A DNA stretch of 64,000 bases from Pseudomonadota bacterium (GTDB lineage Bacteria > UBA10199 > 2-02-FULL-44-16 > JAAZCA01), in the NCBI GenBank assembly GCA_043798915.1, contig JAZDOG010000089.1, positions 33,158 through 97,157 on the forward strand, in the 5' to 3' direction. The translations under genes were made by a program, and so were the position numbers. The number at the start of each line of letters is the position of its first letter. The first letter of the stretch is position 1. Below the pieces are notes generated by a model that had not been told where the DNA came from, did not search any database, and saw nothing but the letters and a program-made list of their open reading frames with translations. This document shows positions 14,784 through 62,876 of the stretch, one piece after another.

Positions 14784-15051
14784 TCCGATTTTCCTCCAAA
14801 TTTATTTTTTGATTATAAACTTTTACGAAAAAAGGACAACAACTTACAAACCGCTTCGACGGAAGACGCCAGCCCCTTCCCTATTATCGGCACAACCACA
14901 CCCGAAAGTTGCCCGAGAAAAAATCCGGCGTTCCGTCAAAAAAATGCCGTTTACGGTAAATAAATACCCATCCATCCATTTTTCAGGCTTTTGTAGAATT
15001 ATAACTTATTGATATATCACGCCTTTTTATGGCGGCGAACGCGCATCGCGT

Positions 15052-15067
15052 TGGCACGCATTTTGCT
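15052..15067 (+). promoter_or_regulatory. Consensus sigma-54 (-24/-12) promoter TGGCAC-gcatt-TTGCT.
   Basis: Exact match to TGGCAC-N5-TTGCW at 15052-15067. The downstream ORF begins at 15107 with RBS AGGAGAGG...GGGGG. Confidence 0.5.
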
Positions 15068-15106: not shown

Positions 15107-15328
15107 ATGATACGGGCGAGGGCAATGGCGGACAGCAGGCCATTCTGGTGGGTCATCGTCGCAGCAGCGCTGTGCACGATTGCCCTGTCGATCTCGCCGC
15201 TCTTCCGCGGCCTGACCAAAGGAACGAGCGCCGCAACGAGCGGGATATCCGCCGTCTCATCGTCCGTAGTCGCGACAACCGATTCGCGCGAGGACGACTC
15301 CGAAGAATCCGACACAGAATACGCGTAG
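15107..15328 (+). CDS. Small (73-aa) membrane protein with an acidic Ser/Asp/Glu-rich C-terminal tail; apparently sigma-54 dependent.
   Basis: TM helix FWWVIVAAALCTIALSISPLF. Lies downstream of the consensus sigma-54 promoter. The competing minus-strand ORF 15067-15342 is rejected. Confidence 0.35.
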   Translation: MIRARAMADSRPFWWVIVAAALCTIALSISPLFRGLTKGTSAATSGISAVSSSVVATTDSREDDSEESDTEYA

Positions 15329-23610: not shown

Positions 23611-24993
<1,383 letters not shown>

Positions 24994-25012
24994 CTCGCTC
25001 GCCTCCTGTCCA

Positions 25013-26437
<1,425 letters not shown>

Positions 26438-26443
26438 GAATTC

Positions 26444-26523
26444 CTCCCCCTCCTTTGTAAGGAGGGGCTAGGGGAGGTAGATCCATCGCTGACTATTTTG
26501 ATCTACCCCACCCTTCCCTCCCC

Positions 26524-26541
<18 letters not shown>
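26444..26541. repeat. Copy A of an approximately 95-bp imperfect palindromic repeat element (two terminal CCCTCC..TTTGTAA..GGAGGG hairpins around an inverted GGGTAGATC / GATCTACCC core).
   Basis: Shares an identical 41-nt block (GATCTACCCCACCCTTCCCTCCCCTTACAAAGGGGAGGGTT) with a second copy at 59371-59465. Overlaps the stop codon of the upstream activator gene and the RBS of the next. Confidence 0.55.
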
Positions 26542-27936
<1,395 letters not shown>

Positions 27937-27937
27937 G

Positions 27938-29113
27938 TTATCCCCCCTCTGTCGATGCCGGCAAACGTACTACAAACTCGGTTCCGCCGCCCTTCACATC
28001 CTCGCACGATATCTCGCCGCCGTGCTCCTTCACTATTCGATAGCTGATCGAAAGGCCGAGCCCCGTGCCCTTGCCCGGCTCCTTGGTCGTAAAAAATGGA
28101 TCGAAGATGCGATCTCTGTTCTCGGGCGAAATGCCGACGCCGGTGTCGCGGACCCTCACCTCGACGAATCCATCCCCATTGCTGCAGCCGGTCTTCACGG
28201 TGAGGACCCCGCCCTTGGGCATCGCATGGCATGCGTTCGTTATGAGGTTCAAGAAGACCTGCTGCAGGCGGTCGGGAATCCCGACGACCTGCGGGAGTCG
28301 CGCGGCACCGTCGAAGTTGAGCTCGATGTTCATCGACCGGAGCTCTCGCTGCACGAACGGAAAGACCTTCTCCAGGAGGAGATTCAAGTCCACGCCGTGC
28401 CTCTCCCTGTCCTTGGAGACGCGCGAAAAATCCAGGAGGTCGGCGACGATCTTCTTGCACCTGACTGCCGCCTTTTCCATCTCGTCCAAGTCGGCCAGCA
28501 GCGTCTTGTTTCCATGCACGTCGCGCTTCATGAGCTGGGCGAAGGCGAGAATCCCGCCAAGGGGATTGTTGATCTCGTGGGCCACGCCGCCGGCGAGCAT
28601 GCCGATCGCCGCCATCTTCTCCTGCTGGATGACCTCGCGCTGGAGGCGGCGCTCTTCGGTGATGTCGCGGTAGTAGAGGACGGCGGACCCGGCCGCGGCG
28701 GCGCTCATCGGGTAAGCGCTCGTCTCGTAATCCCTGCGGCTTATCTGGCAGCCCAGCACGGAGGTCGTGTGCGCGTCGCGCTTGAGGGCCGCGGGCAAAG
28801 GGCATCCTTCGCACGGCGCCGTGCGCCCGGCGAAGACATCGTGGCACCTCTTGCCGATTATCGTCGCGATGTCCTTGCCGCAGGCCGCGGCGAGGGAGAG
28901 ATTTGCGCGAATTATCTCATAGTCGCGCGAGACGATCTGCACGGGGGATGTGATGGCATCGAAGGTGGACTCCCACATGTACTTGCCGCGGGAGATGATC
29001 CCAACCAGTTCCTCGAGCTTTGCGGCGCGGCCGGAGAGGATTTTGAGCCTCTTGACGAACTCTTCCCGGCTCAAGGATTCAATGGATGGGTCTTTTTTTC
29101 TGGATGAGGCCAT
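27938..29113 (-). CDS. PAS-domain sensor histidine kinase (cytoplasmic).
   Basis: PAS region, H-box 'AHEINNPL', and HATPase 'DTGVGI...GTGLGLSI'. Confidence 0.85.
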   Translation of the reverse strand: MASSRKKDPSIESLSREEFVKRLKILSGRAAKLEELVGIISRGKYMWESTFDAITSPVQIVSRDYEIIRANLSLAAACGKDIATIIGKRCHDVFAGRTAPCEGCPLPAALKRDAHTTSVLGCQISRRDYETSAYPMSAAAAGSAVLYYRDITEERRLQREVIQQEKMAAIGMLAGGVAHEINNPLGGILAFAQLMKRDVHGNKTLLADLDEMEKAAVRCKKIVADLLDFSRVSKDRERHGVDLNLLLEKVFPFVQRELRSMNIELNFDGAARLPQVVGIPDRLQQVFLNLITNACHAMPKGGVLTVKTGCSNGDGFVEVRVRDTGVGISPENRDRIFDPFFTTKEPGKGTGLGLSISYRIVKEHGGEISCEDVKGGGTEFVVRLPASTEGG

Positions 29114-29286: not shown

Positions 29287-32200
29287 CTATCGCGCTGGCT
29301 GAAAGGTGAAGGAAATATCATCTGAGACCTCGCTCTTTTTCACGAGGCCGCGAGGCAGCTTCTTCCTTCTTGCAATTTGGCATAGACGCTCTCCGAATTC
29401 TTTTGAATCACCTTCCGTGCCCTCACCAACTTTGCATCCAACATCTCCGGAAGGATCGACGGTATATTTAAGGCTCCCCGTGGCCGCGAAGTCGGGATTC
29501 CTTTTCAAAAAACGCTCGTAACAATACGAGAACTCCTTCTTCAGCTCATCCCTAAGACGCTGGAATATAACCGCAGAATCTCCCTTCGACCACTGGCTCA
29601 ATTTCCCCAGCTCGCCAGTCAGGCGTTTGATTGCCCCCTTGACTTCACCTCTTCTGTTTCTGTCAGCTGGTCCTCGCAGCTCCTCCAGCGTGATCTTTCC
29701 GTATTCCTCCAGAGCGCTTTTGATATCCCGGATCTTTATATCCCGAAGGTCGTTCAGGCGCGCCTCTTCCTCGAACGAACGCGCCAGATAATAATGAGCA
29801 CTGGCTACAAATGAGGGCGCTTTTGCGCGGATAGTCGAAGCAGTTGCGGAAAAAGACGGGGATTCCATGTCCCTGAAAAACTTCTGATAGGAAGCGGTTG
29901 CCTTATCATAGTAACCTACCCCCATAGCAAAATAAAGACGACCCTGACAGGCAGAGGACTGGATAAAATCAGGATGGAGCCCGCGAAACTCTTCGAGGGC
30001 CTTAATCTCCTTTTCTTTGTCGTCGTCTGATTGGCTGGTATACGACCAGCCGAGATCCGCTCTGGCAGCGAGGAGTTTGGCCTCGGCTTCCTTTTTTTTG
30101 TCTTTCATCTCAAGCTCTGATGCTATCCTGATGATCCCCTCGAGGGTGGAAATCAATCTCTCTTGCTCCGCGATGGATTTTGACTTCTTCGCATCACTTG
30201 AGAATCGTTTAAAGGTCACTTTGGCTTCATCTGTGAATGTTTTAAGGGCTTTGTCGCGCGCCTCGTCTATCTCTCTGTCACGCTCATTGGCCCATTTTTT
30301 CTGCTCGTCGGATGGCTGAAGCCCTCCATATCTAATAACCAGCCCCTTGGCTGACTTGATGCAATCAATGACACTTTTATAATTGCGCGCATGCACGGCT
30401 TTCTTAACTCCATCAAGTGAGGCCCGCACCTCCTCGAGAACCTCCTTTTTTGCCTTTTCATTTCTCTCTGCCTCGGTCAGCGGGGGTGGAGGTGGTTTTG
30501 GCACGACTGGTGCAGGCACAGGCGCCGGCGGTTTGGGCGGAGGAGGCGGAGCGACATGTGGCAGTTGGGCAACCGGCGCATTTTTAGCAGGAGGTGCAAC
30601 AGGAACGGTCGGCCTGAGAGCGGGAGTCGCGGCTGCAGGAGGTGCTGGAGCAACCGAAGGTTTTGTTGGCGGCGGAGCAGGCGGTGCAGCGGGAGCGGTC
30701 GGTTTGGGAGAGGGAGTGCCGGCTGCCGGAACCGGTGAACGGGGTTCGGTTTTGTCCTGAGGGGCAAGCCCAAGCAGCTTTGCTATATTCACATCAACCA
30801 TCTGCCTCGTCGCCCCCTTCGGACCACTGAATAGATAAATTTTAGGCTGGTCGGGGACCTCTGCCCCCCCCCTGTTGACGCCCGGCCAGTTCACGCTGTC
30901 GACAAACACGAGCGGCACCAGAGGCTTGCCATTCTCCACCTGTTTGTCCTCAAGCGCGACAAGCCTGCGCCTGAGTTCAGAGGTCTTCTCCTTGCCGGCC
31001 CCTTCCGTCGGAGCCACGAACACAATGACGCGCTCGTCTGTATTGTAGATTGCGCCGGCCGCCTCGCTGTTGGCAACTTCGACAAAACCCACCGGCTTGT
31101 AAGTTTGTGCCTTCCATCTGCCGCCATGCTGGGCGACCTTATAGATGTGGTATTTGGCTTTTTTGGATTCTATCTCCCTTGGTTCAATGCCGAGTTTTCG
31201 CAGAAATCCGCGGCGAAGACTTTGGAGTGTTGCCCCATCATGGCGCTCAGGCATATGCGGGATGAAGAAATAACGGCGCTTGATTTGCAAGTCCCTGCCC
31301 TCGCTGTAGAGACGATAGGTCAAATCGCCCGCCTGCGTATCGGTCGGATCACCGACGATGACAAACGCATCGCCGGCGCCCGGACCGAAGTGGGCCCCAA
31401 AATGACGATAATCGATATAGCAGAAACCATTCTCGTCGGTCGTCTCGCCGTGCTTCTTTATCAGTTCCTCAACATCGACATCTGGCACTTCGATCGGGGC
31501 CTCGATGCCCACAAAGCGGCCGTCCTTGATATCCCCTTCGAACTGGATCTTTGCGTATTTCGCAGTGGGCTGCGGCATCAAGATCCCAAGCCTGTTGGCA
31601 ATCTGTCTCCCCCGCTTGCTTGAAATATCCACGACGGCGATCATGCCCCTGTTCCCTGCTTTATCTTTCGTCGGCTCAGTATTATTCACAAGCTTCACAA
31701 AATCTTCTTCTCTGAAGAACGCGCCCGTGACAAAAACGGTGACGGAGCTTTTCCATTCATTTTTGTAGTTATCAAGCGTGAGTTCGACCACTCCGGGCTT
31801 GAAGGCCTGCTCCGGCTTCAGGGCAGGCGCCGTCGGGCCGGCGGGAGGGAACTCGGCATCTGGGACCTCGGAATGACTCACAAGCGCCTCCCGGATATCG
31901 AAGTCCTCACAGTGGCGATTGCCGGCGCTGCCGGTGCAGATTAAGAATGCCCGGCCGCTTAATTGCACATGGGGCAGATCCGCGAGTTTTCCCTTCAACT
32001 TCAATGGCACATAGATCGCCTCGACGTCGAGCTTTCCTCCGATGTCCTTTTTATTTATGAGTCTATCGTCCAACTTGGCCATGATCTTCTGGTTCTTGGC
32101 TTCCTTGTCCCGGTCCTCCTCCTCTATGACCACCAGAACATTGCCCGATGACTTTAAGATGTAGCGTTCGAGATCGCCGGCGGATTTGATATCCGTGAAC

Positions 32201-33864
32201 ATCACGACCTTGCGCGAAGTCTTCCTGTCCCACAGCTCATTTATCTTCGCCTGTCCCCTGGCAATCATCTCCCCCCAATTTTTCTTATCATCCGCATTCC
32301 CGGTCTTCTCATTCAACTTGGCCGCATCGTTGAATGCAGCGAGGGCCGCATCCTTGTCGCCCTCTTTCCCTGTCCCCTGAAAGACCGCTTTGAGAACAGT
32401 GGCCTTCAAGAAATGGGCGTGTGCCTTGACGGACTCCGAATCCCCTTCCTCGATATGGCCCAGATAAGCCTCAACGAATTTGCGGGCCTGCTCCAGCTCC
32501 AGGTTTACCTTGCCGGCATCCTGCGCGGCTTGAATCGCACCATCCTCAAAAATCTTCGCCGTCTTGAAATATTTCTCGATCTTCCCATCGATGTCCTTCA
32601 GCATCCTGGAGCGGACATCCGAACGTTTTTGCTTCGCAGCCAAAACCTGCTGGAACTCTTCGTCATTCTGTGTCTGCATGTCTCTGAGTCTATTATAAGC
32701 GTCATCAAGGACGGCAAAAACGGTGCTCATCGCATCCAGGTGGCGGGGATCGATCGCGAGCGCCTTCGCCTTTCTCTCCTGCTCCGCAATCATCTTATCG
32801 ACCGCACCCAGCTCTTCCTTGAGCTTTTTCGCCGCCGCCTTGTCTATCTTCGGGGGTTTTGCAGCAGGCGGTTTGGCCGCAGCCGCATCTTTCTGCGGCG
32901 TCTCTGGTTTCTGGACAGCGTCGTCCTTGAACTTCCTGGTTCCGAAACTGGCTTCAAAACTGAATTTGGCCGGACCGGCTTGATCCAGCTTCTCCGCGGT
33001 CCTCTCATTAGGAACCCCGCGCGGTGCAAACTTTGAGAGGAGAATCGGGTCCTTCTCGACTATGAAACGAGAGGCATCGGGATTATCTATTCTTACCTGA
33101 TCCAGGTATTTTTTGAGACCCCTGTCGCTCAAGTCGGCTGCGATGATCACCACCTTGTTAGCAGATTTGATGCTCTCCTCAATCTCGTCGGGCCCGATCA
33201 CAGGTATTCCGTACATTTTTTTTGCAGGCTTTGCGGCGGGCGGCTTTTCTGCGGCTGCCGCCTTGTCCGCCTTCTGAGGAGCCTCGGGCTCCTTGTCAGC
33301 ATCGTCCCTGAACTTCATGCTTCCGGAAATGAGTTCAAAACTGAATACGGACGGACCGGCCTGATCCAGCTTGTCCGCGGCCCTCTCCTGCGGAACACCG
33401 CGCTGCGCAAGCTTCGAAAGAAGACTCGAATCCTTTTCGACTATGAAGAGACAGGCTTCGGAATTGTCTTTTTTTACCTTATCCAGATTTTTTTTGAGGC
33501 CCTTGTCGCTCAAATCGGCCGCGACGATCACCACCTTGTCGGCGGAATCGATGCTCTTTTGAAGCTCGTCGGCCCCGATCACGGGTATTCCGTACAGGTT
33601 CTTTATCTTTGTTCTTGCCTTTGTCGGAACCTGGCATGCTCCAAAGAGTTTGATGATCGAGGGAAGCTGGCTGGCAAACTCGCCCTTTGTGGAAAACGAC
33701 CTGTTAAACTTTCCATCGCAGGACTCGAATTCAAATTTTCCGCCCGATTTCGTGTCGTGCTCAAACTTCTCCATCTGCTCCTCGCAATAGGAGCGTTTGT
33801 CCTCGTCGGCCGGACTGGAGTAAGTCTTTTTGCAGACATCGAAGGGGCCGCTTCCACCTGTCAT
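29287..33864 (-). CDS. Very large (about 1525-aa) multidomain protein of unknown function. N-terminal 4-Cys region, two tandem about 125-aa duplicated modules, coiled coil, three alpha/beta (thioredoxin-like?) modules, about 110-aa Pro/Ala-rich linker, alpha-helical TPR-like C-terminal domain.
   Basis: Single uninterrupted ORF. Start moved to MTGGSGPFD (RBS GGAGGAG 6 nt upstream); the listed GTG start is spurious. Duplicated module YGIPVIG.DE...KVVI.AADLSD.GLKK seen twice. Low-complexity linker PAPPAPPPTKPSVAPAPP... Confidence 0.7.
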   Translation of the reverse strand: MTGGSGPFDVCKKTYSSPADEDKRSYCEEQMEKFEHDTKSGGKFEFESCDGKFNRSFSTKGEFASQLPSIIKLFGACQVPTKARTKIKNLYGIPVIGADELQKSIDSADKVVIVAADLSDKGLKKNLDKVKKDNSEACLFIVEKDSSLLSKLAQRGVPQERAADKLDQAGPSVFSFELISGSMKFRDDADKEPEAPQKADKAAAAEKPPAAKPAKKMYGIPVIGPDEIEESIKSANKVVIIAADLSDRGLKKYLDQVRIDNPDASRFIVEKDPILLSKFAPRGVPNERTAEKLDQAGPAKFSFEASFGTRKFKDDAVQKPETPQKDAAAAKPPAAKPPKIDKAAAKKLKEELGAVDKMIAEQERKAKALAIDPRHLDAMSTVFAVLDDAYNRLRDMQTQNDEEFQQVLAAKQKRSDVRSRMLKDIDGKIEKYFKTAKIFEDGAIQAAQDAGKVNLELEQARKFVEAYLGHIEEGDSESVKAHAHFLKATVLKAVFQGTGKEGDKDAALAAFNDAAKLNEKTGNADDKKNWGEMIARGQAKINELWDRKTSRKVVMFTDIKSAGDLERYILKSSGNVLVVIEEEDRDKEAKNQKIMAKLDDRLINKKDIGGKLDVEAIYVPLKLKGKLADLPHVQLSGRAFLICTGSAGNRHCEDFDIREALVSHSEVPDAEFPPAGPTAPALKPEQAFKPGVVELTLDNYKNEWKSSVTVFVTGAFFREEDFVKLVNNTEPTKDKAGNRGMIAVVDISSKRGRQIANRLGILMPQPTAKYAKIQFEGDIKDGRFVGIEAPIEVPDVDVEELIKKHGETTDENGFCYIDYRHFGAHFGPGAGDAFVIVGDPTDTQAGDLTYRLYSEGRDLQIKRRYFFIPHMPERHDGATLQSLRRGFLRKLGIEPREIESKKAKYHIYKVAQHGGRWKAQTYKPVGFVEVANSEAAGAIYNTDERVIVFVAPTEGAGKEKTSELRRRLVALEDKQVENGKPLVPLVFVDSVNWPGVNRGGAEVPDQPKIYLFSGPKGATRQMVDVNIAKLLGLAPQDKTEPRSPVPAAGTPSPKPTAPAAPPAPPPTKPSVAPAPPAAATPALRPTVPVAPPAKNAPVAQLPHVAPPPPPKPPAPVPAPVVPKPPPPPLTEAERNEKAKKEVLEEVRASLDGVKKAVHARNYKSVIDCIKSAKGLVIRYGGLQPSDEQKKWANERDREIDEARDKALKTFTDEAKVTFKRFSSDAKKSKSIAEQERLISTLEGIIRIASELEMKDKKKEAEAKLLAARADLGWSYTSQSDDDKEKEIKALEEFRGLHPDFIQSSACQGRLYFAMGVGYYDKATASYQKFFRDMESPSFSATASTIRAKAPSFVASAHYYLARSFEEEARLNDLRDIKIRDIKSALEEYGKITLEELRGPADRNRRGEVKGAIKRLTGELGKLSQWSKGDSAVIFQRLRDELKKEFSYCYERFLKRNPDFAATGSLKYTVDPSGDVGCKVGEGTEGDSKEFGERLCQIARRKKLPRGLVKKSEVSDDISFTFQPAR

Positions 33865-34011
33865 GACCTGCTCCTCCAAAAGGGCGTACGGACATCCCCC
33901 CACTTTATTATCGGCAGATTTCCAATAATGTTGCGTCCTTTTGGCTGAAAAATGAACCGATAGCCATCGTCAGCAACGGCTTACGCTAAAATAGACATGA
34001 ATATCAATTAA

Positions 34012-37289: not shown

Positions 37290-37764
37290 CGATCATCCAT
37301 CAGTTCAAGCGCCGCTTCAAAATCGCAAAGCCTATAACGCATCCCTTTTAACAGTTCAACTGTGAATTCTTGCCCCTGTATCGCGGGCTGTTCAAAAGGG
37401 CCCAGATGCGAGGCGTCCGACCGAGGCCGGCCGAGTCGTACTTGGATGTACGTCGCAGGCCGCGCCGAGGGAGGAGAACGAAGCAGATGGGCCCTTTTCA
37501 ACAGCCCGCCCCTAAAAAAATCCCCCCGCTTGGGCCGTTTGGTGTCACCATTTTTGAACCCGACTCAATCAGGTGGGTGATCGTATTGCTGCTTTAGGCT
37601 TCCCCACCCCGTCAAAAAGGCCGCACCGCCGGCCTTTCAGAAAGGGCGGGGCATGCACACCACAGCAAGGGACAATCCCCAAAATGGCAATGTCGGTTCT
37701 AAAATTACGACACCGAGGTCGCACCCAGCAGGGGGAAACCCTTGTCCTATGTGAAAGAGCAAAA

Positions 37765-52215: not shown

Positions 52216-53586
52216 CTACATCAGTCCCAGTTCCTTCATCTTGCCATAGAGCGTCGTGCGGCCCAAATCGAGACTCCTCGCGGCCTTGCTTTTGTCGCCG
52301 TTGCATATCCGCAGGGCGTGCTCGATATACTGCCGCTCGGCACGGGCGACGTAGTCCTTGAGGGCGCCGACCGTCGCATCGGCCGTGGGGAGGCCCACCG
52401 GCGCGGCCGCGCCGGTCCTGCAGCCGTTGAGCGCCCATGACGGGAAGATCGATTCGTCGATACGGTCGCCAGGCGCCAGGATGGACAAGCTCTGGACGAT
52501 GTTCGCCAGCTCCCTCACATTCCCCGGCCAATGATAGGCCATGAGCCGCCCCATGGCCGCGGGTGTGAAGCTCTTCACCGCGCCATCCTTCGCAAACCGC
52601 GCGAGGAAATGATCGATGAGCGGCGGGATGTCCTCCACGCGCTCGCGCAGCGGAGGCATCGAGAACTGTATGACGCGCAGCCGGTGGTAGAGGTCCATGC
52701 GGAATTCGCCGCGGCTGACCTTCTCCTCGAGCAATTCATTGGTCGCCGCAATCACGCGGAAGTCGGCCTTGATGAGTTCGTTGCCGCCCACGCGGCAGAA
52801 CTCTCGCTCCTGCAATACACGCAGGATCTTCGCCTGCATGTCGGCCTTGAGGGCGCCCACCTCGTCCAAGAAAATGTCGCCTCCGTCGGCGAGCTCAAAC
52901 TTGCCGAGCCTGCGCTTTATGGCGCCGGTGTAGGCGCCAGCCTCGGCGCCGAAGAGCTCCGCCTCGATCAGGTTGTCGGGGATGGCCGCGCAGTTGACTG
53001 CGATGAAAGGTCTGCGGGCATCGCCCTCGATGCGGTGTATGTGGCGGGCCAGGAGTTCCTTGCCGGTGCCGGTCTCCCCGACGATCAGGACGTTTGCCCC
53101 GTGGCCTTTGAGCTGCTCCGTCTGGGAGAGGATGCCGCTCACCGCGGCGCTCCTGTGTATTATGCCGGGACAGCAACTTCCGGTGTTTTGGGCCTCGACG
53201 AGGGCGTCGTACCGCTCGCGCACGCGGCGCGCAGCCGCCTGCCTCTCGGCTATCGCCTGAAGCTCCTCCATGTCGAAGGGCTTGGTGAGATAATCGATCG
53301 CACCGGCGCGTATGGCCTCGACCACCGTCTTCGGATCGCGTTGGCCAGACAGGATGACGATGTCCACGGCGGGGTCGACGGATTTTATTCGGCGTATGCC
53401 CTCTATTCCATTCTCCCTGCCAAGCCCAATATCCAGAAGGACCATATCGATCGAACCGCCCCGCATCAGCGACAATCCCTCCTCTATGGACGGCGCGGTG
53501 GAGACGGCAAATATCCCGTGAAGCTGCATGCGCATGCCGATGAGAAAATCTGGATCGTCGTCGATGCAAAGAACTTTATACGTCAT
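52216..53586 (-). CDS. Sigma-54-dependent response regulator (NtrC family); no adjacent kinase.
   Basis: Start moved to MTYKVLCIDDD (GGAGGA RBS 4 nt upstream). Receiver 'MVLLDIGLG...YLTKP'; 'GETGTGKE'; 'GAYTGA'; C-terminal HTH. Confidence 0.85.
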   Translation of the reverse strand: MTYKVLCIDDDPDFLIGMRMQLHGIFAVSTAPSIEEGLSLMRGGSIDMVLLDIGLGRENGIEGIRRIKSVDPAVDIVILSGQRDPKTVVEAIRAGAIDYLTKPFDMEELQAIAERQAAARRVRERYDALVEAQNTGSCCPGIIHRSAAVSGILSQTEQLKGHGANVLIVGETGTGKELLARHIHRIEGDARRPFIAVNCAAIPDNLIEAELFGAEAGAYTGAIKRRLGKFELADGGDIFLDEVGALKADMQAKILRVLQEREFCRVGGNELIKADFRVIAATNELLEEKVSRGEFRMDLYHRLRVIQFSMPPLRERVEDIPPLIDHFLARFAKDGAVKSFTPAAMGRLMAYHWPGNVRELANIVQSLSILAPGDRIDESIFPSWALNGCRTGAAAPVGLPTADATVGALKDYVARAERQYIEHALRICNGDKSKAARSLDLGRTTLYGKMKELGLM

Positions 53587-53615
53587 AAGTTCCTCCATGT
53601 TTTCATCCTTATCTT

Positions 53616-53631
53616 AGCAATTTTCGTGCCA
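53616..53631 (-). promoter_or_regulatory. Consensus sigma-54 promoter TGGCAC-gaaaa-TTGCT on the minus strand, about 30 nt upstream of the regulator start codon.
   Basis: Reverse complement of 53616-53631 is TGGCACGAAAATTGCT, an exact TGGCAC-N5-TTGCW match. Correct spacing to the GGAGGA RBS and ATG at 53586. A TGTTC-N8-GAACA inverted repeat at 53749-53766 is a possible activator site. Confidence 0.55.
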
Positions 53632-56687: not shown

Positions 56688-58091
56688 ATGAAGACGGCTG
56701 ATCTCGATATTCTCGTCCAAGAGGGTGAGAGCACGACGCTGGAGTTCAAAGAGGGGCTGTCGTCGTCGTTCGCGCGCGAGCTGGTTGGGATGGCCAACAC
56801 GATCGGCGGCAAAGTTTTGCTCGGCGTTCGGGATGATGGCGCGGTGCTCGGCCTGACGGACTCCAACGCCTTGCGTGCCCGTGTCCAGGATATCGCCCGA
56901 AACTGCGATCCGCCAGTGGAGGTAGTGGTCGAACTGGTGGGGCGGGTGCTGGTGGTGCATGTTCACGAAAGCAATGCCAAACCGGTACAGTGCAGCGACG
57001 GCTTCTTCTGGCGGCAAGGGGCTGCTACTCAAAAGCTTTCTCGGGACGAAGTTAGGAATTTCTTCCACGCCGAGGGTGCGATACATTTCGACTTATCGCC
57101 TTGCCCGCGCTTCCGCTATCCGGAGGACTTCGACCGCGAGAAATACGCTGCGTGGCTGGAGCTCAGTGGCATCAGCGGACGGCCGAGCACGGAGGATGTG
57201 CTGGTCAATATCGAAGCCGCCGAGCGCACGGGTGGAAAACTCTTGTTCCGCAACGCGGGCGTGCTGTTCTTTGCCAAGAATGTTCGGCACTTTTTTAACC
57301 ATGCCTACGTCACATGCCTTTTGGCCAAGGGCACCGACAAGGTTCGTGTGCTGGACCGCAAAGATTTCGACGGTGGCATTGTGGCCGATATACAGGACTC
57401 CATGCGTTTCATCGAACGCAACACTCGAACCGCCTGGCGTATCGAAGGTCTGCGCCGGGAGGACATCCCCGAGTATCCGATGAAAGCCCTGCGCGAAGCT
57501 ATCACCAATGCGGTCATGCACCGCGATTGGTTCGTTGATGGGGCCAATGTTTTCGTGGAGATATACACCGATCGGATCGAAATCTCGAGCCCTGGCGGCC
57601 TGCCAAAGGGCATGAAGCTTTCCGACCTTGGCCGCAAGAGCATCCGACGCAACGCCCTTATCGCCGATTTGCTCCATCGCATAGAGTTCATCGAAAAGGC
57701 GGGAACTGGCATAAAGCGGATTCGCGACGAGGCACACGAGCAAGGCTGCCCCGAGCCGGTTTTCGAGGTGGACGGCTTTTTTACTTCGATATTCCGCCCA
57801 AATCCCGAAGTCAGGGCCCAAGCTGGGGTTGTAGCCAAATCATCGACCGGGGAAGTCACCGGGGAAGTCACAAGGCTTCTGGCCGTCATGTCCAGCGAGA
57901 TGAAACGCAAGGAAATCCAAGAGGCTCTGGGGCTTAAGCACGAGGACCACTTTCGGGAAGCGTATCTTTTGCCGGCTATCAGGGCTGGAGTTGTCGAATT
58001 GACAATCCCCGATAGACCCAGAAGCAGCAGGCAACGCTACCGCCTGACGGCCAAAGGGCGCAGTCTGTTGAGGAAGAAAAACAAGGAGTGA
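56688..58091 (+). CDS. AlbA_2 (divergent AAA / Schlafen-like) + HATPase_c_4 + C-terminal wHTH protein ('putative DNA-binding/ATP-binding transcriptional regulator' architecture).
   Basis: N-terminal 'ESTTLEFKEG...GGKVLLGVRDDGAVLGL' AlbA_2 signature, followed by a GHKL-like region and a C-terminal helix-turn-helix. Confidence 0.65.
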   Translation: MKTADLDILVQEGESTTLEFKEGLSSSFARELVGMANTIGGKVLLGVRDDGAVLGLTDSNALRARVQDIARNCDPPVEVVVELVGRVLVVHVHESNAKPVQCSDGFFWRQGAATQKLSRDEVRNFFHAEGAIHFDLSPCPRFRYPEDFDREKYAAWLELSGISGRPSTEDVLVNIEAAERTGGKLLFRNAGVLFFAKNVRHFFNHAYVTCLLAKGTDKVRVLDRKDFDGGIVADIQDSMRFIERNTRTAWRIEGLRREDIPEYPMKALREAITNAVMHRDWFVDGANVFVEIYTDRIEISSPGGLPKGMKLSDLGRKSIRRNALIADLLHRIEFIEKAGTGIKRIRDEAHEQGCPEPVFEVDGFFTSIFRPNPEVRAQAGVVAKSSTGEVTGEVTRLLAVMSSEMKRKEIQEALGLKHEDHFREAYLLPAIRAGVVELTIPDRPRSSRQRYRLTAKGRSLLRKKNKE

Positions 58092-58422: not shown

Positions 58423-59054
58423 TCAGTGGGAAGGCGCAGCGGTCGGCGCCTTCTTGGTAGATTTTCCTCCCTGAACTCCGTTTCCGACAGCGTCCCCGAG
58501 TTTGCTGATATAGTCCAATGCCTCACCCAGCGTTTCGCAGGTCTGTTCAATTTTCGTGATTTCCTTATTCACGTCCTTGCCCTTGAATCCCTTGGCTTCC
58601 AGGGTCATTCTGATCTGATCTTTCCCATTCTGTTTGCCCGCGGTGTCGGGCAGACCATCAAGGCCATAAAGGGCGTCAACAGTGAGCGGCTTCTGGCCGT
58701 GCAGGTGAAGGAACGCATTGACGCGACCCATGACCCTGGCAAAATCCGCGTCACTCGGCGGCGTTATGCCTTGTGGCTTGAGCTTCCATTGAGCCAAATA
58801 ATATTTTGCTATGCTCTTTCTCATTTTTTCCGGTGTCGGCTGAAAAACCGTCGTGACAATCTTCCATTCCTTTGCGTCCGACTTGTCCAGCACAATGGCG
58901 ATATATTGCCGCTGACCGTTGATGGCAGACGGAGCAATATCAGACGGAGGAGCGTCAGACGGAGCGCCATGGTGGATATCGAGCGGCGTGGAGGCGATAA
59001 GCTCCTTTTGCCCCTGACCGCCTATTTTATTGGTGTCTCCAGCCCCGAACATAC
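58423..59054 (-). CDS. Hypothetical 210-aa protein (no signal peptide, no recognised domain) expressed from a sigma-54 promoter. Gene is AT-richer than its flanks.
   Basis: ATG (MFGAGDTNK...) immediately follows the poly-G tract. The listed TTG start at 59100 lies inside the promoter element and is rejected. Confidence 0.5.
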
Positions 59055-59067
59055 CCCCCCCCCCCCG
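59055..59067. repeat. Homopolymeric tract, 13 x C on the plus strand (G13 on the coding strand), sitting between the sigma-54 promoter/TSS and the ATG of the downstream gene.
   Basis: Counted directly: 59055-59067 are all C. It is the longest homopolymer in the window. Confidence 0.9.
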
Positions 59068-59096
59068 AATAAACTCCTGATCGGTAGTATTTGATC

Positions 59097-59112
59097 GCAA
59101 TAGACGTGCCAG
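59097..59112 (-). promoter_or_regulatory. Consensus sigma-54 promoter TGGCAC-gtcta-TTGCG on the minus strand, about 40 nt upstream of the MFGAGD start.
   Basis: Reverse complement of 59097-59112 is TGGCACGTCTATTGCG, an exact GG-N10-GC core with full TGGCAC / TTGC. Confidence 0.5.
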
Positions 59113-59328
59113 GAGGGCGACTAATATAACTATTTGATATTAATGGTTTTTTTGACGTATTACAAGGGATGCATGCACCCCTGCTGAGGACTTCGATATT
59201 CGCATCGGGGCTTTTTGTCCCCAACATCACTAGGGCCCTTCTCATTCTCCGCTCAGGGCGATCGCCAAGTCCTTCCCTCCCGCAAGCGCCCATTTTGCAA
59301 AGCTCTCTCACAGATTTGAATAGCAACC

Positions 59329-59357
59329 CTTGATATTCCTTATAAAGGTCCCATATT
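59329..59357 (+). promoter_or_regulatory. Sigma-32-type heat-shock promoter candidate CTTGATA-N14-CCCATATT upstream of clpB.
   Basis: Matches CTTGAAA-N13-15-CCCCATNT with one mismatch in each box. About 120 nt upstream of the clpB ATG. Confidence 0.35.
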
Positions 59358-59370
59358 ATTGAGGAAGTTA

Positions 59371-59465
59371 CCCTCCCCCTTTGTAAGGGGGAGTTAGAGG
59401 GGGTAGATCGTGCGGAATCTACATGATCTACCCCACCCTTCCCTCCCCTTACAAAGGGGAGGGTT
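59371..59465. repeat. Copy B of the approximately 95-bp palindromic repeat element, located in the clpB leader directly upstream of the clpB RBS.
   Basis: Identical 41-nt right arm and near-identical left arm to copy A (26444-26541). Confidence 0.55.
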
Positions 59466-59479
59466 AAAAGGAGGTTTTC

Positions 59480-62076: not shown

Positions 62077-62430
62077 TTAAAGAGATAGAATGGTTCTCAG
62101 CACTTCTTCTATTTCCAATAGAGTGCCGCTGGATACAATTCCCAATTTTTTAACAAAGCGGCTTTTGGAAATCGTGCGTATCTGGTCGCACTTAACAAAG
62201 CTGGTTTTTCTTAATCCTCCTTCTGGAGGAGCTAATTTTATATGAGAAGGAATATTTCTAAACGTTGTCGTGATGGGAAGAACTATTACAAGATCAGCCT
62301 GACAATTATTAATTTCATCGACCGATATTACGAGCGCCGGCCGCTCGCCATGAATTTCCTTGCCTTGGCCAGGGGGATTTAGATTAACAAGCCACACTTC
62401 AGAGCGATACATGTTTTCCATCAGCGTCAA
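62077..62430 (-). CDS. mazF: MazF/PemK-family type II toxin (endoribonuclease).
   Basis: 'SEVWLVNLNPPGQGKEIHGERPALVIS' matches the PemK/MazF N-terminal core. Overlaps the upstream antitoxin by 4 nt. AT-rich. Confidence 0.75.
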   Translation of the reverse strand: MTLMENMYRSEVWLVNLNPPGQGKEIHGERPALVISVDEINNCQADLVIVLPITTTFRNIPSHIKLAPPEGGLRKTSFVKCDQIRTISKSRFVKKLGIVSSGTLLEIEEVLRTILSL

Positions 62431-62675
62431 TCCTTTTCCAGACCATCACCACCTGTTGAATCCCAAGCTTCCCTCTCAATAATTTCATCTTTCCATGCCT
62501 TGCTGTCCGACTTGAGAGATGCATAGGCTTCAGCACAATTATTTAAAAAACATTTTCGTCGATAAATGACCAGGGCTTTCTGAATAATCCTTCCCCTTGA
62601 GAGATGTTCTCGTTCTGTCATTTCTCGAAGTATATTTTCAGACTCCCTGTCTATTCTAACAGTCGCAGTATGCAT
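62427..62675 (-). CDS. Ribbon-helix-helix-type antitoxin partner of the MazF-like toxin.
   Basis: Start moved to MHTATVRIDRES (AGGAGG RBS 8 nt upstream). Small basic N-terminal beta-strand 'ATVRID' typical of RHH/MazE-like antitoxins. Confidence 0.55.
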   Translation of the reverse strand: MHTATVRIDRESENILREMTEREHLSRGRIIQKALVIYRRKCFLNNCAEAYASLKSDSKAWKDEIIEREAWDSTGGDGLEKD

Positions 62676-62876
62676 ATTATTACCTCCTATATGGATAGTA
62701 TACATTATTGCATACTAATATGTCTACATATATGTTATCGGCAATGTGGCCATATATGTTGCTAACTATTTCGTATATCCATATTTATATATAAATATCA
62801 ATGAGTTGTTTCGCGCCACCAGTCGCTCCGTCTGACAATTTTGTTCGATCGTGACAACGGGTAGCAAGGTTGCCGT

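Follow-up and report, generated by a model that had tools for sequence, protein, structure and literature searches.

On the minus strand of the 64-kb window analyzed here (the whole stretch of DNA, taken from one contig of a metagenome-assembled genome [MAG] of a Pseudomonadota bacterium), a sigma-54 -24/-12 element is followed by a run of 13 G residues (G13) and a 209-aa open reading frame (ORF). The whole analysis rests on that single contig. Direct reading of the sequence gave the minus-strand order CC-TGGCACGTCTATTGC-GATCAAATACTACCGATCAGGAGTTTATTC-G13-T-ATG, with 30 nt from TTGC to the run and 44 nt from TTGC to the ATG. This is the order, and the gap of about 30 nt between element and tract, that a previous sequence-only reading had described. 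The run reported there is real, but its plus-strand coordinates (C13 at 59055 to 59067) were one base too high, the true position being 59054 to 59066. The ORF, given as 210 aa, has an actual length of 209 aa (ATG from 59052, stop at 58425 to 58423). Its product is identical to NCBI MAG protein V2A66_08485 (annotated as "hypothetical protein," Pseudomonadota bacterium). The features of the locus, and of a similar promoter elsewhere in the window, are as follows.

59166 to 59181, minus strand: imperfect 16-bp palindrome GGGGTGCATGCATCCC, centered ~88 nt 5' of the predicted transcription start site (TSS); candidate enhancer-binding protein (EBP) site
59127 to 59139, minus strand: IHF consensus TATCAAATAGTTA, an exact match to WATCAANNNNTTR, between the palindrome and the -24 element
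59097 to 59111, minus strand: sigma-54 -24/-12 element TGGCACGTCTATTGC, exact consensus TGGCACG-N4-TTGC
59085, minus strand: predicted TSS, ~12 nt past the GC of the -12 (standard sigma-54 geometry), giving a leader of ~33 nt
59074 to 59078, minus strand: canonical AGGAG, 21 nt before the ATG (8 nt if the G tract were absent)
59054 to 59066, minus strand: G13 homopolymer occupying -14 to -2 of the leader, counted from the ATG; probable surrogate Shine-Dalgarno (SD) sequence and potential slippage or G-quadruplex tract
59053 and 59052 to 59050, minus strand: single T and then the ATG (direct reading)
58423 to 59052, minus strand: 209-aa ORF with a TGA stop at 58425 to 58423
58926 to 58965, minus strand: 15-nt tandem repeat (2.7 copies) encoding APSD/APPSD/IAPSA, at the place of the family's EIPSNRD
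58483 to 58932, minus strand: residues ~41 to 190, with homology to a module located internally or C-terminally in giant 2H-SAK/HD proteins
56688 to 58091, plus strand: AlbA_2/HATPase_c_4/Fic-like_C gene, convergent with the ORF (GC3, 0.69)
15002 to 15014 and 15052 to 15066: second IHF consensus and sigma-54 element, respectively, before a 73-aa hydrophobic ORF (15107 to 15328)

Genomic context

The 209-aa ORF has a GC content of 0.54 and a GC3 of 0.61, compared with GC3 values of 0.76 to 0.87 for the ClpB, GH57, EBP, and NagZ genes; the earlier remark that the gene is AT-richer than its neighbors was thus borne out. In related MAGs (55 to 61% identity), the arrangement EBP-DUF4912-GH57 is kept, and both the 209-aa ORF and the AlbA_2 gene are absent. 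These two genes form a lineage-specific, low-GC3 islet flanked by clpB and the gene for the GH57 branching enzyme. The atypical GC3 and the absence from relatives both point to a lateral origin of the 209-aa ORF.

Other elements were observed around this islet and farther away in the window. The AlbA_2 (Schlafen-type) protein gave partial matches to PADLOC models associated with pAgo. Just after clpB, a MazF/PemK toxin gene and its upstream 92-aa partner (62077 to 62705, minus strand) lie in a very low-GC islet (GC3, 0.30 to 0.38). Directly 5' of the clpB SD sequence lies a compound palindromic element of ~100 nt (59368 to 59467), in which CCCTCCCCTTACAAAGGGGAGGG arms surround a second hairpin (-65 kcal/mol; z = -5.6), and a second copy of this element is located between two EBP genes (26440 to 26540). 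It looks like a REP/MITE-like sequence or, alternatively, a clpB leader structure 3' of a sigma-70-like site (59330 to 59359). The sole Rfam match in the window was a 6S RNA (RF00013; 97 bits) at 37519 to 37737 on the minus strand.

The predicted sigma-54 promoter

Exact matches to TGGCAC-N5-TTGC occur three times in the window, where 0.09 is expected, and none of 100 shuffled sequences reached three. All three are in the correct orientation and lie 20 to 45 nt 5' of ORF starts, the remaining two preceding a response-regulator EBP gene and the 73-aa membrane ORF. The IHF consensus WATCAANNNNTTR was found five times (1.07 expected); two of the five matches (59127 to 59139 and 15002 to 15014) are directly 5' of exact sigma-54 elements and adjoin two of the three promoters. 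The window also contains genes for four EBPs, identified by their Sigma54_activat domain. The rpoN gene is not among the genes of the 64-kb window, and we infer that RpoN is present in the organism.

The palindrome upstream of the 209-aa ORF lies at a distance from the predicted TSS at which sigma-54 upstream activating sequences are typically found. A search for an activator motif common to the three sigma-54 upstream regions yielded matches at the chance level only, the palindrome included, and no known EBP motif was found upstream of the 59097-to-59111 element, where the palindrome (approximately -88) and the IHF consensus are present. A sigma-70-like promoter was likewise sought in the intergenic region, and none was found on its minus strand. 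Because the consensus is exact and enriched, is placed directly before an ORF, and is accompanied by an IHF consensus, a palindrome, and four EBP genes, with no sigma-70-like site, the promoter at 59111 to 59097 is very probably functional. The sigma-54 control proposed in the sequence-only reading is well supported by the exact consensus, its placement, the IHF consensus at two of three promoters, and the four EBP genes.

The arrangement resembles known sigma-54/IHF/NtrC-family EBP promoters in its exact GG-N10-GC element (TGGCACG-N4-TTGC), in the IHF consensus between promoter and palindrome, in its short leader, and in the four EBP genes nearby in the window. It differs from them in that the window lacks rpoN and in that the target appears to be a laterally acquired orphan rather than a nitrogen, flagellar, or stress operon.

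Three tandem genes for sigma-54 enhancer-binding response regulators adjoin a PAS histidine kinase gene (23611 to 29113). The fourth EBP, an NtrC-type response regulator (52216 to 53598, minus strand), is preceded by an exact sigma-54 element of its own (53617 to 53631), which suggests that it is autoregulated. The 73-aa hydrophobic ORF has no Pfam match, and its leader contains AGGAG followed by a G-rich SD sequence.

The G13 tract and the leader

The G13 run is a clear outlier: G/C runs of at least 13 nt are expected 0.003 to 0.009 times per window (about 0.2 to 0.7 times per 5 Mb). Since only one other G/C run of at least 8 nt was found in the window (C9, 30864 to 30872), against about four expected, long G/C runs are otherwise avoided there. 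The C9 run reads as G9 on the coding strand inside a 1538-aa ORF without a Pfam domain (29287 to 33903, minus strand) and could frameshift that gene.

The tract most likely serves as the ribosome-binding sequence of the 209-aa ORF. This role is plausible because other genes in the window have G-rich SD sequences, with GGGGG or GGGGGG at -9 to -15 before the starts of the DUF4912 gene, the third EBP gene, and the 73-aa ORF. A run of 13 nt far exceeds the needs of an SD sequence, and this reading leaves its length unexplained. The tract had been described as the sole purine-rich, RBS-like sequence, which overlooked the AGGAG at 59078 to 59074. The spacing of this motif to the ATG is 8+n (where n is the length of the G run), so only big contractions of the run would bring it into range. 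Because the chance of AGGAG occurring anywhere in such a leader is ~0.04, it is a weak hint of a displaced SD sequence.

The ORF does not include the tract, and a single base always separates the 3' end of the run from the ATG. It follows that the distance from the SD register to the AUG would be constant at any tract length, and the proposal in the sequence-only reading that length changes alter RBS spacing fails if the tract is the SD sequence. An in-frame upstream TTG (59100 to 59098) had also been put forward as a start codon through which slippage would change the reading frame. That TTG belongs to the TTGC of the -12 element, 5' of the expected TSS; it is therefore unusable as a start on the predicted transcript, which leaves no frame-shifting route. 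With the frame and the SD-AUG spacing both unchanged, slippage by one base is predicted to be nearly neutral for initiation. As in contingency loci, the repeat is long enough for hypermutability, but unit changes here would alter neither the frame nor the promoter/RBS geometry. On these sequence grounds, the phase-variation reading of G13 appears mechanistically weak.

The ordinary fold of the leader is unexceptional (z = -1.9). Rough ViennaRNA predictions with G-quadruplex energies gave no quadruplex below n = 11, a two-tier structure at n = 11 to 13, a structure at n = 14 that uses the GGGG after the start codon and holds the AUG in a loop, and three tiers at n of at least 15. On this speculative basis, tract length might have a graded effect through leader structure.

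The 209-aa protein occurs a single time in a collection of 5.8 billion sequences (V2A66_08485, on a 121-kb contig). An exact-protein look-up returned no second copy of the locus, and word-indexed protein searches with the sequence and with a profile found V2A66_08485 and no other contig. Genome, viral, and metagenome scans by protein or core alignment, scans of the same three kinds of data with a DNA pattern that tolerated any tract length, and tblastn searches of phage and plasmid collections also detected no second copy of the locus.

Precedents are known for G runs that precede an ORF and grade its expression. In Moraxella catarrhalis, a G(n) tract upstream of the uspA1 ORF tunes expression (PMC7302503), as does a poly-G run in the 5' untranslated region of Mycobacterium tuberculosis espR (PMC11898584). 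As in those genes, the G run here is located between the TSS (predicted in our case) and the start codon, a position in which a change of length can alter mRNA level or translation without a frameshift. Unlike in uspA1 and espR, the tract abuts the ATG and is probably itself the SD sequence, the promoter is predicted to be sigma-54 dependent, the product is cytoplasmic and encoded in an environmental MAG, and the locus is known from one contig with one tract length.

The 209-aa protein and competing explanations

No credible domain was detected in the 209-aa protein with Pfam, NCBIfam, PHROGs, or PADLOC, and no consistent match emerged from profile and family searches against NCBIfam, PHROGs, PADLOC, PDB sequences, and Pfam, the last run on every copy of the module. 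The earlier statement that the protein has no recognizable domain holds for these databases, but it does not extend to an exhaustive phmmer (HMMER) search against 1.84 billion representative sequences, which revealed homology to a module of giant proteins. Eight relatives besides the query were retrieved. The best matches were proteins of 1438, 2643, 728, and 2427 aa (E values of 1.8e-35 to 2.3e-28), and weaker matches were proteins of 7998 and 4355 aa and a 129-aa piece. One of the eight, P0007, was rejected as a relative, being an S-layer protein with a low-complexity match. Residues ~41 to 190 match an interior or C-terminal part of the giants with 40 to 50% identity.

The giants carry the Pfam domains 2H-SAK ("Swiss Army Knife" 2H phosphoesterase), HD, and tRNA_NucTran2_2. 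What the ORF has in common with these SAK proteins (2H-SAK, HD, and CCA-type nucleotidyltransferase) is the module downstream of their HD/NTase region; in contrast to them, it is stand-alone, only 209 aa long, and devoid of 2H-SAK, HD, and NTase domains (Pfam). It is the only stand-alone copy of the module among the relatives found, because the 129-aa relative runs off the end of its contig and the 728-aa relative (P0004) corresponds to the distal portion of a giant gene of the SAK type, which is interrupted right after an A10 run. The break in the latter gene (L002, ~1690 to 1760) reads ...GMETKKKKI and then a stop after A10; its cause is a frameshift or assembly error, unless the gene is truly split at the homopolymer.

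The module signature (..YxAVVVDKxDPxxWKIVTTxF..) and a helical region with KGYxGK are both present in the ORF. In the alignment, the ORF corresponds to the last two-thirds of the module and, in another difference from the giants, lacks its first ~70 residues. The missing segment contains the most conserved motif of the module (GWQG..EHxGxGGFHxGAQRL..KPGET..SRF), and a search for it upstream of the ATG gave only noise. The EIPSNRD segment of the family is replaced in the ORF by the 15-nt repeat (2.7 copies), and the family-invariant residues W63, T67, R78, L86, N112, L115, and G119 are kept. For residues ~41 to 190, the predicted structure is a three-stranded beta meander plus six helices. With the giants as queries, tblastn matched only positions 58426 to 59004 in the window. 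Upstream of the giant genes themselves, no sigma-54 consensus is present, and no G tract occurs where the gene begins. The 209-aa product has no signal peptide; it is probably either a binding or accessory protein without catalytic activity or a recent gene fragment. SAK proteins were reportedly described as RNA-repair proteins by Burroughs and Aravind in 2016.

The explanation that we favor, with moderate confidence, is that the locus is a laterally acquired monocistronic orphan with a genuine sigma-54/IHF promoter, G13 as its SD sequence, and a truncated SAK-module product. We consider it unlikely that the locus is instead a contingency locus, in which slipped-strand mispairing often alters the length of the G tract and reversibly switches or grades the sigma-54-driven gene. 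G/C runs turn hypermutable at 8 to 9 nt, a length that G13 clearly exceeds, and the tract stands out strongly in a window where such runs are otherwise underrepresented; uspA1 (PMC7302503) and espR (PMC11898584) are precedents, and the G-quadruplex energies in ViennaRNA predict thresholds at n = 11, 14, and 15. The position of the tract outside the ORF, the location of the upstream TTG within the -12 element, and an SD-to-AUG spacing independent of tract length all speak against such a switch. The same is true of the product, which is cytoplasmic and without a signal peptide, whereas typical contingency genes encode surface or restriction-modification functions, and of the source, an environmental MAG with no second contig bearing the locus in the collections searched. 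It is very improbable that sequencing or assembly of the MAG produced the tract, or its length of 13 nt, as an artifact. Poly-G is a known artifact of two-color Illumina sequencing, homopolymer lengths are error-prone (above all in long-read assemblies), and a single MAG contig is the basis of the analysis. However, G13 lies well within a 121-kb contig and is flanked by unique sequence, composition shows no break at the tract, and reads must span G13 because the run is shorter than assembler k-mers.

Decay deserves about as little credence as a contingency locus: the ORF would then be a 3' fragment of a once-giant SAK-type gene with a functionless product, and the G tract and N-terminal low-complexity segment would be scars of truncation. 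All other family members are within proteins of 728 to 7998 aa or run off a contig end, the most conserved N-terminal segment of the module is absent from the ORF, the EIPSNRD region has given way to a 15-nt triplication, and the gene has an atypical GC3 and is missing in relatives. In addition, IGGQGQKELIAS weakly resembles the IGSQRLSDLLAS of the family, with the G tract at the position of GWQGG (E value of about 1.5). Against decay, the frame is open over 209 codons, the seven family-invariant residues named above are retained, a complete and statistically improbable sigma-54/IHF promoter is positioned exactly before the ORF, and the rest of a SAK gene leaves no trace in the window (tblastn). 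We also considered that the G13 leader is a length-dependent RNA/DNA G-quadruplex switch on the sigma-54 transcript, tuning the translation of a domesticated fragment of an RNA-repair SAK protein. Tracts of at least 11 G would fold within themselves, at certain lengths the fold would draw in the GGGG that follows the start codon and hold the AUG within a loop, and slippage would set the translation level of the SAK-derived fragment. Such a switch, which is built on the predicted folds, seems highly unlikely.

Under the orphan-gene explanation that we prefer, transcription would proceed from the -24/-12 element, with the IHF consensus as a bend site and the upstream palindrome as the likely activator site. 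It would start near 59085 and produce a ~33-nt leader, in which G13 fills -14 to -2 and serves as the ribosome-binding sequence. Any variation in tract length would grade expression via leader folding or a G-quadruplex rather than turn it on and off. The product would be a stand-alone, N-terminally shortened copy of the giant SAK (2H phosphoesterase/HD) module. Counting against this explanation, the palindrome is not common to the other two promoters beyond chance, and the ORF starts mid-module and carries an internal 15-nt triplication; it could be a non-functional remnant.

As it stands, the locus presents a clean sigma-54/IHF promoter that was captured by, or built before, a laterally acquired orphan gene, and it points to an uncharacterized protein module with approximately eight occurrences among 1.84 billion representatives. 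Should the length of the tract truly vary, the locus would be a rare example, from a free-living bacterium, of a sigma-54 transcript under a simple-sequence rheostat, and such control would be linked to a stand-alone part of the giant SAK proteins, which have barely been studied.
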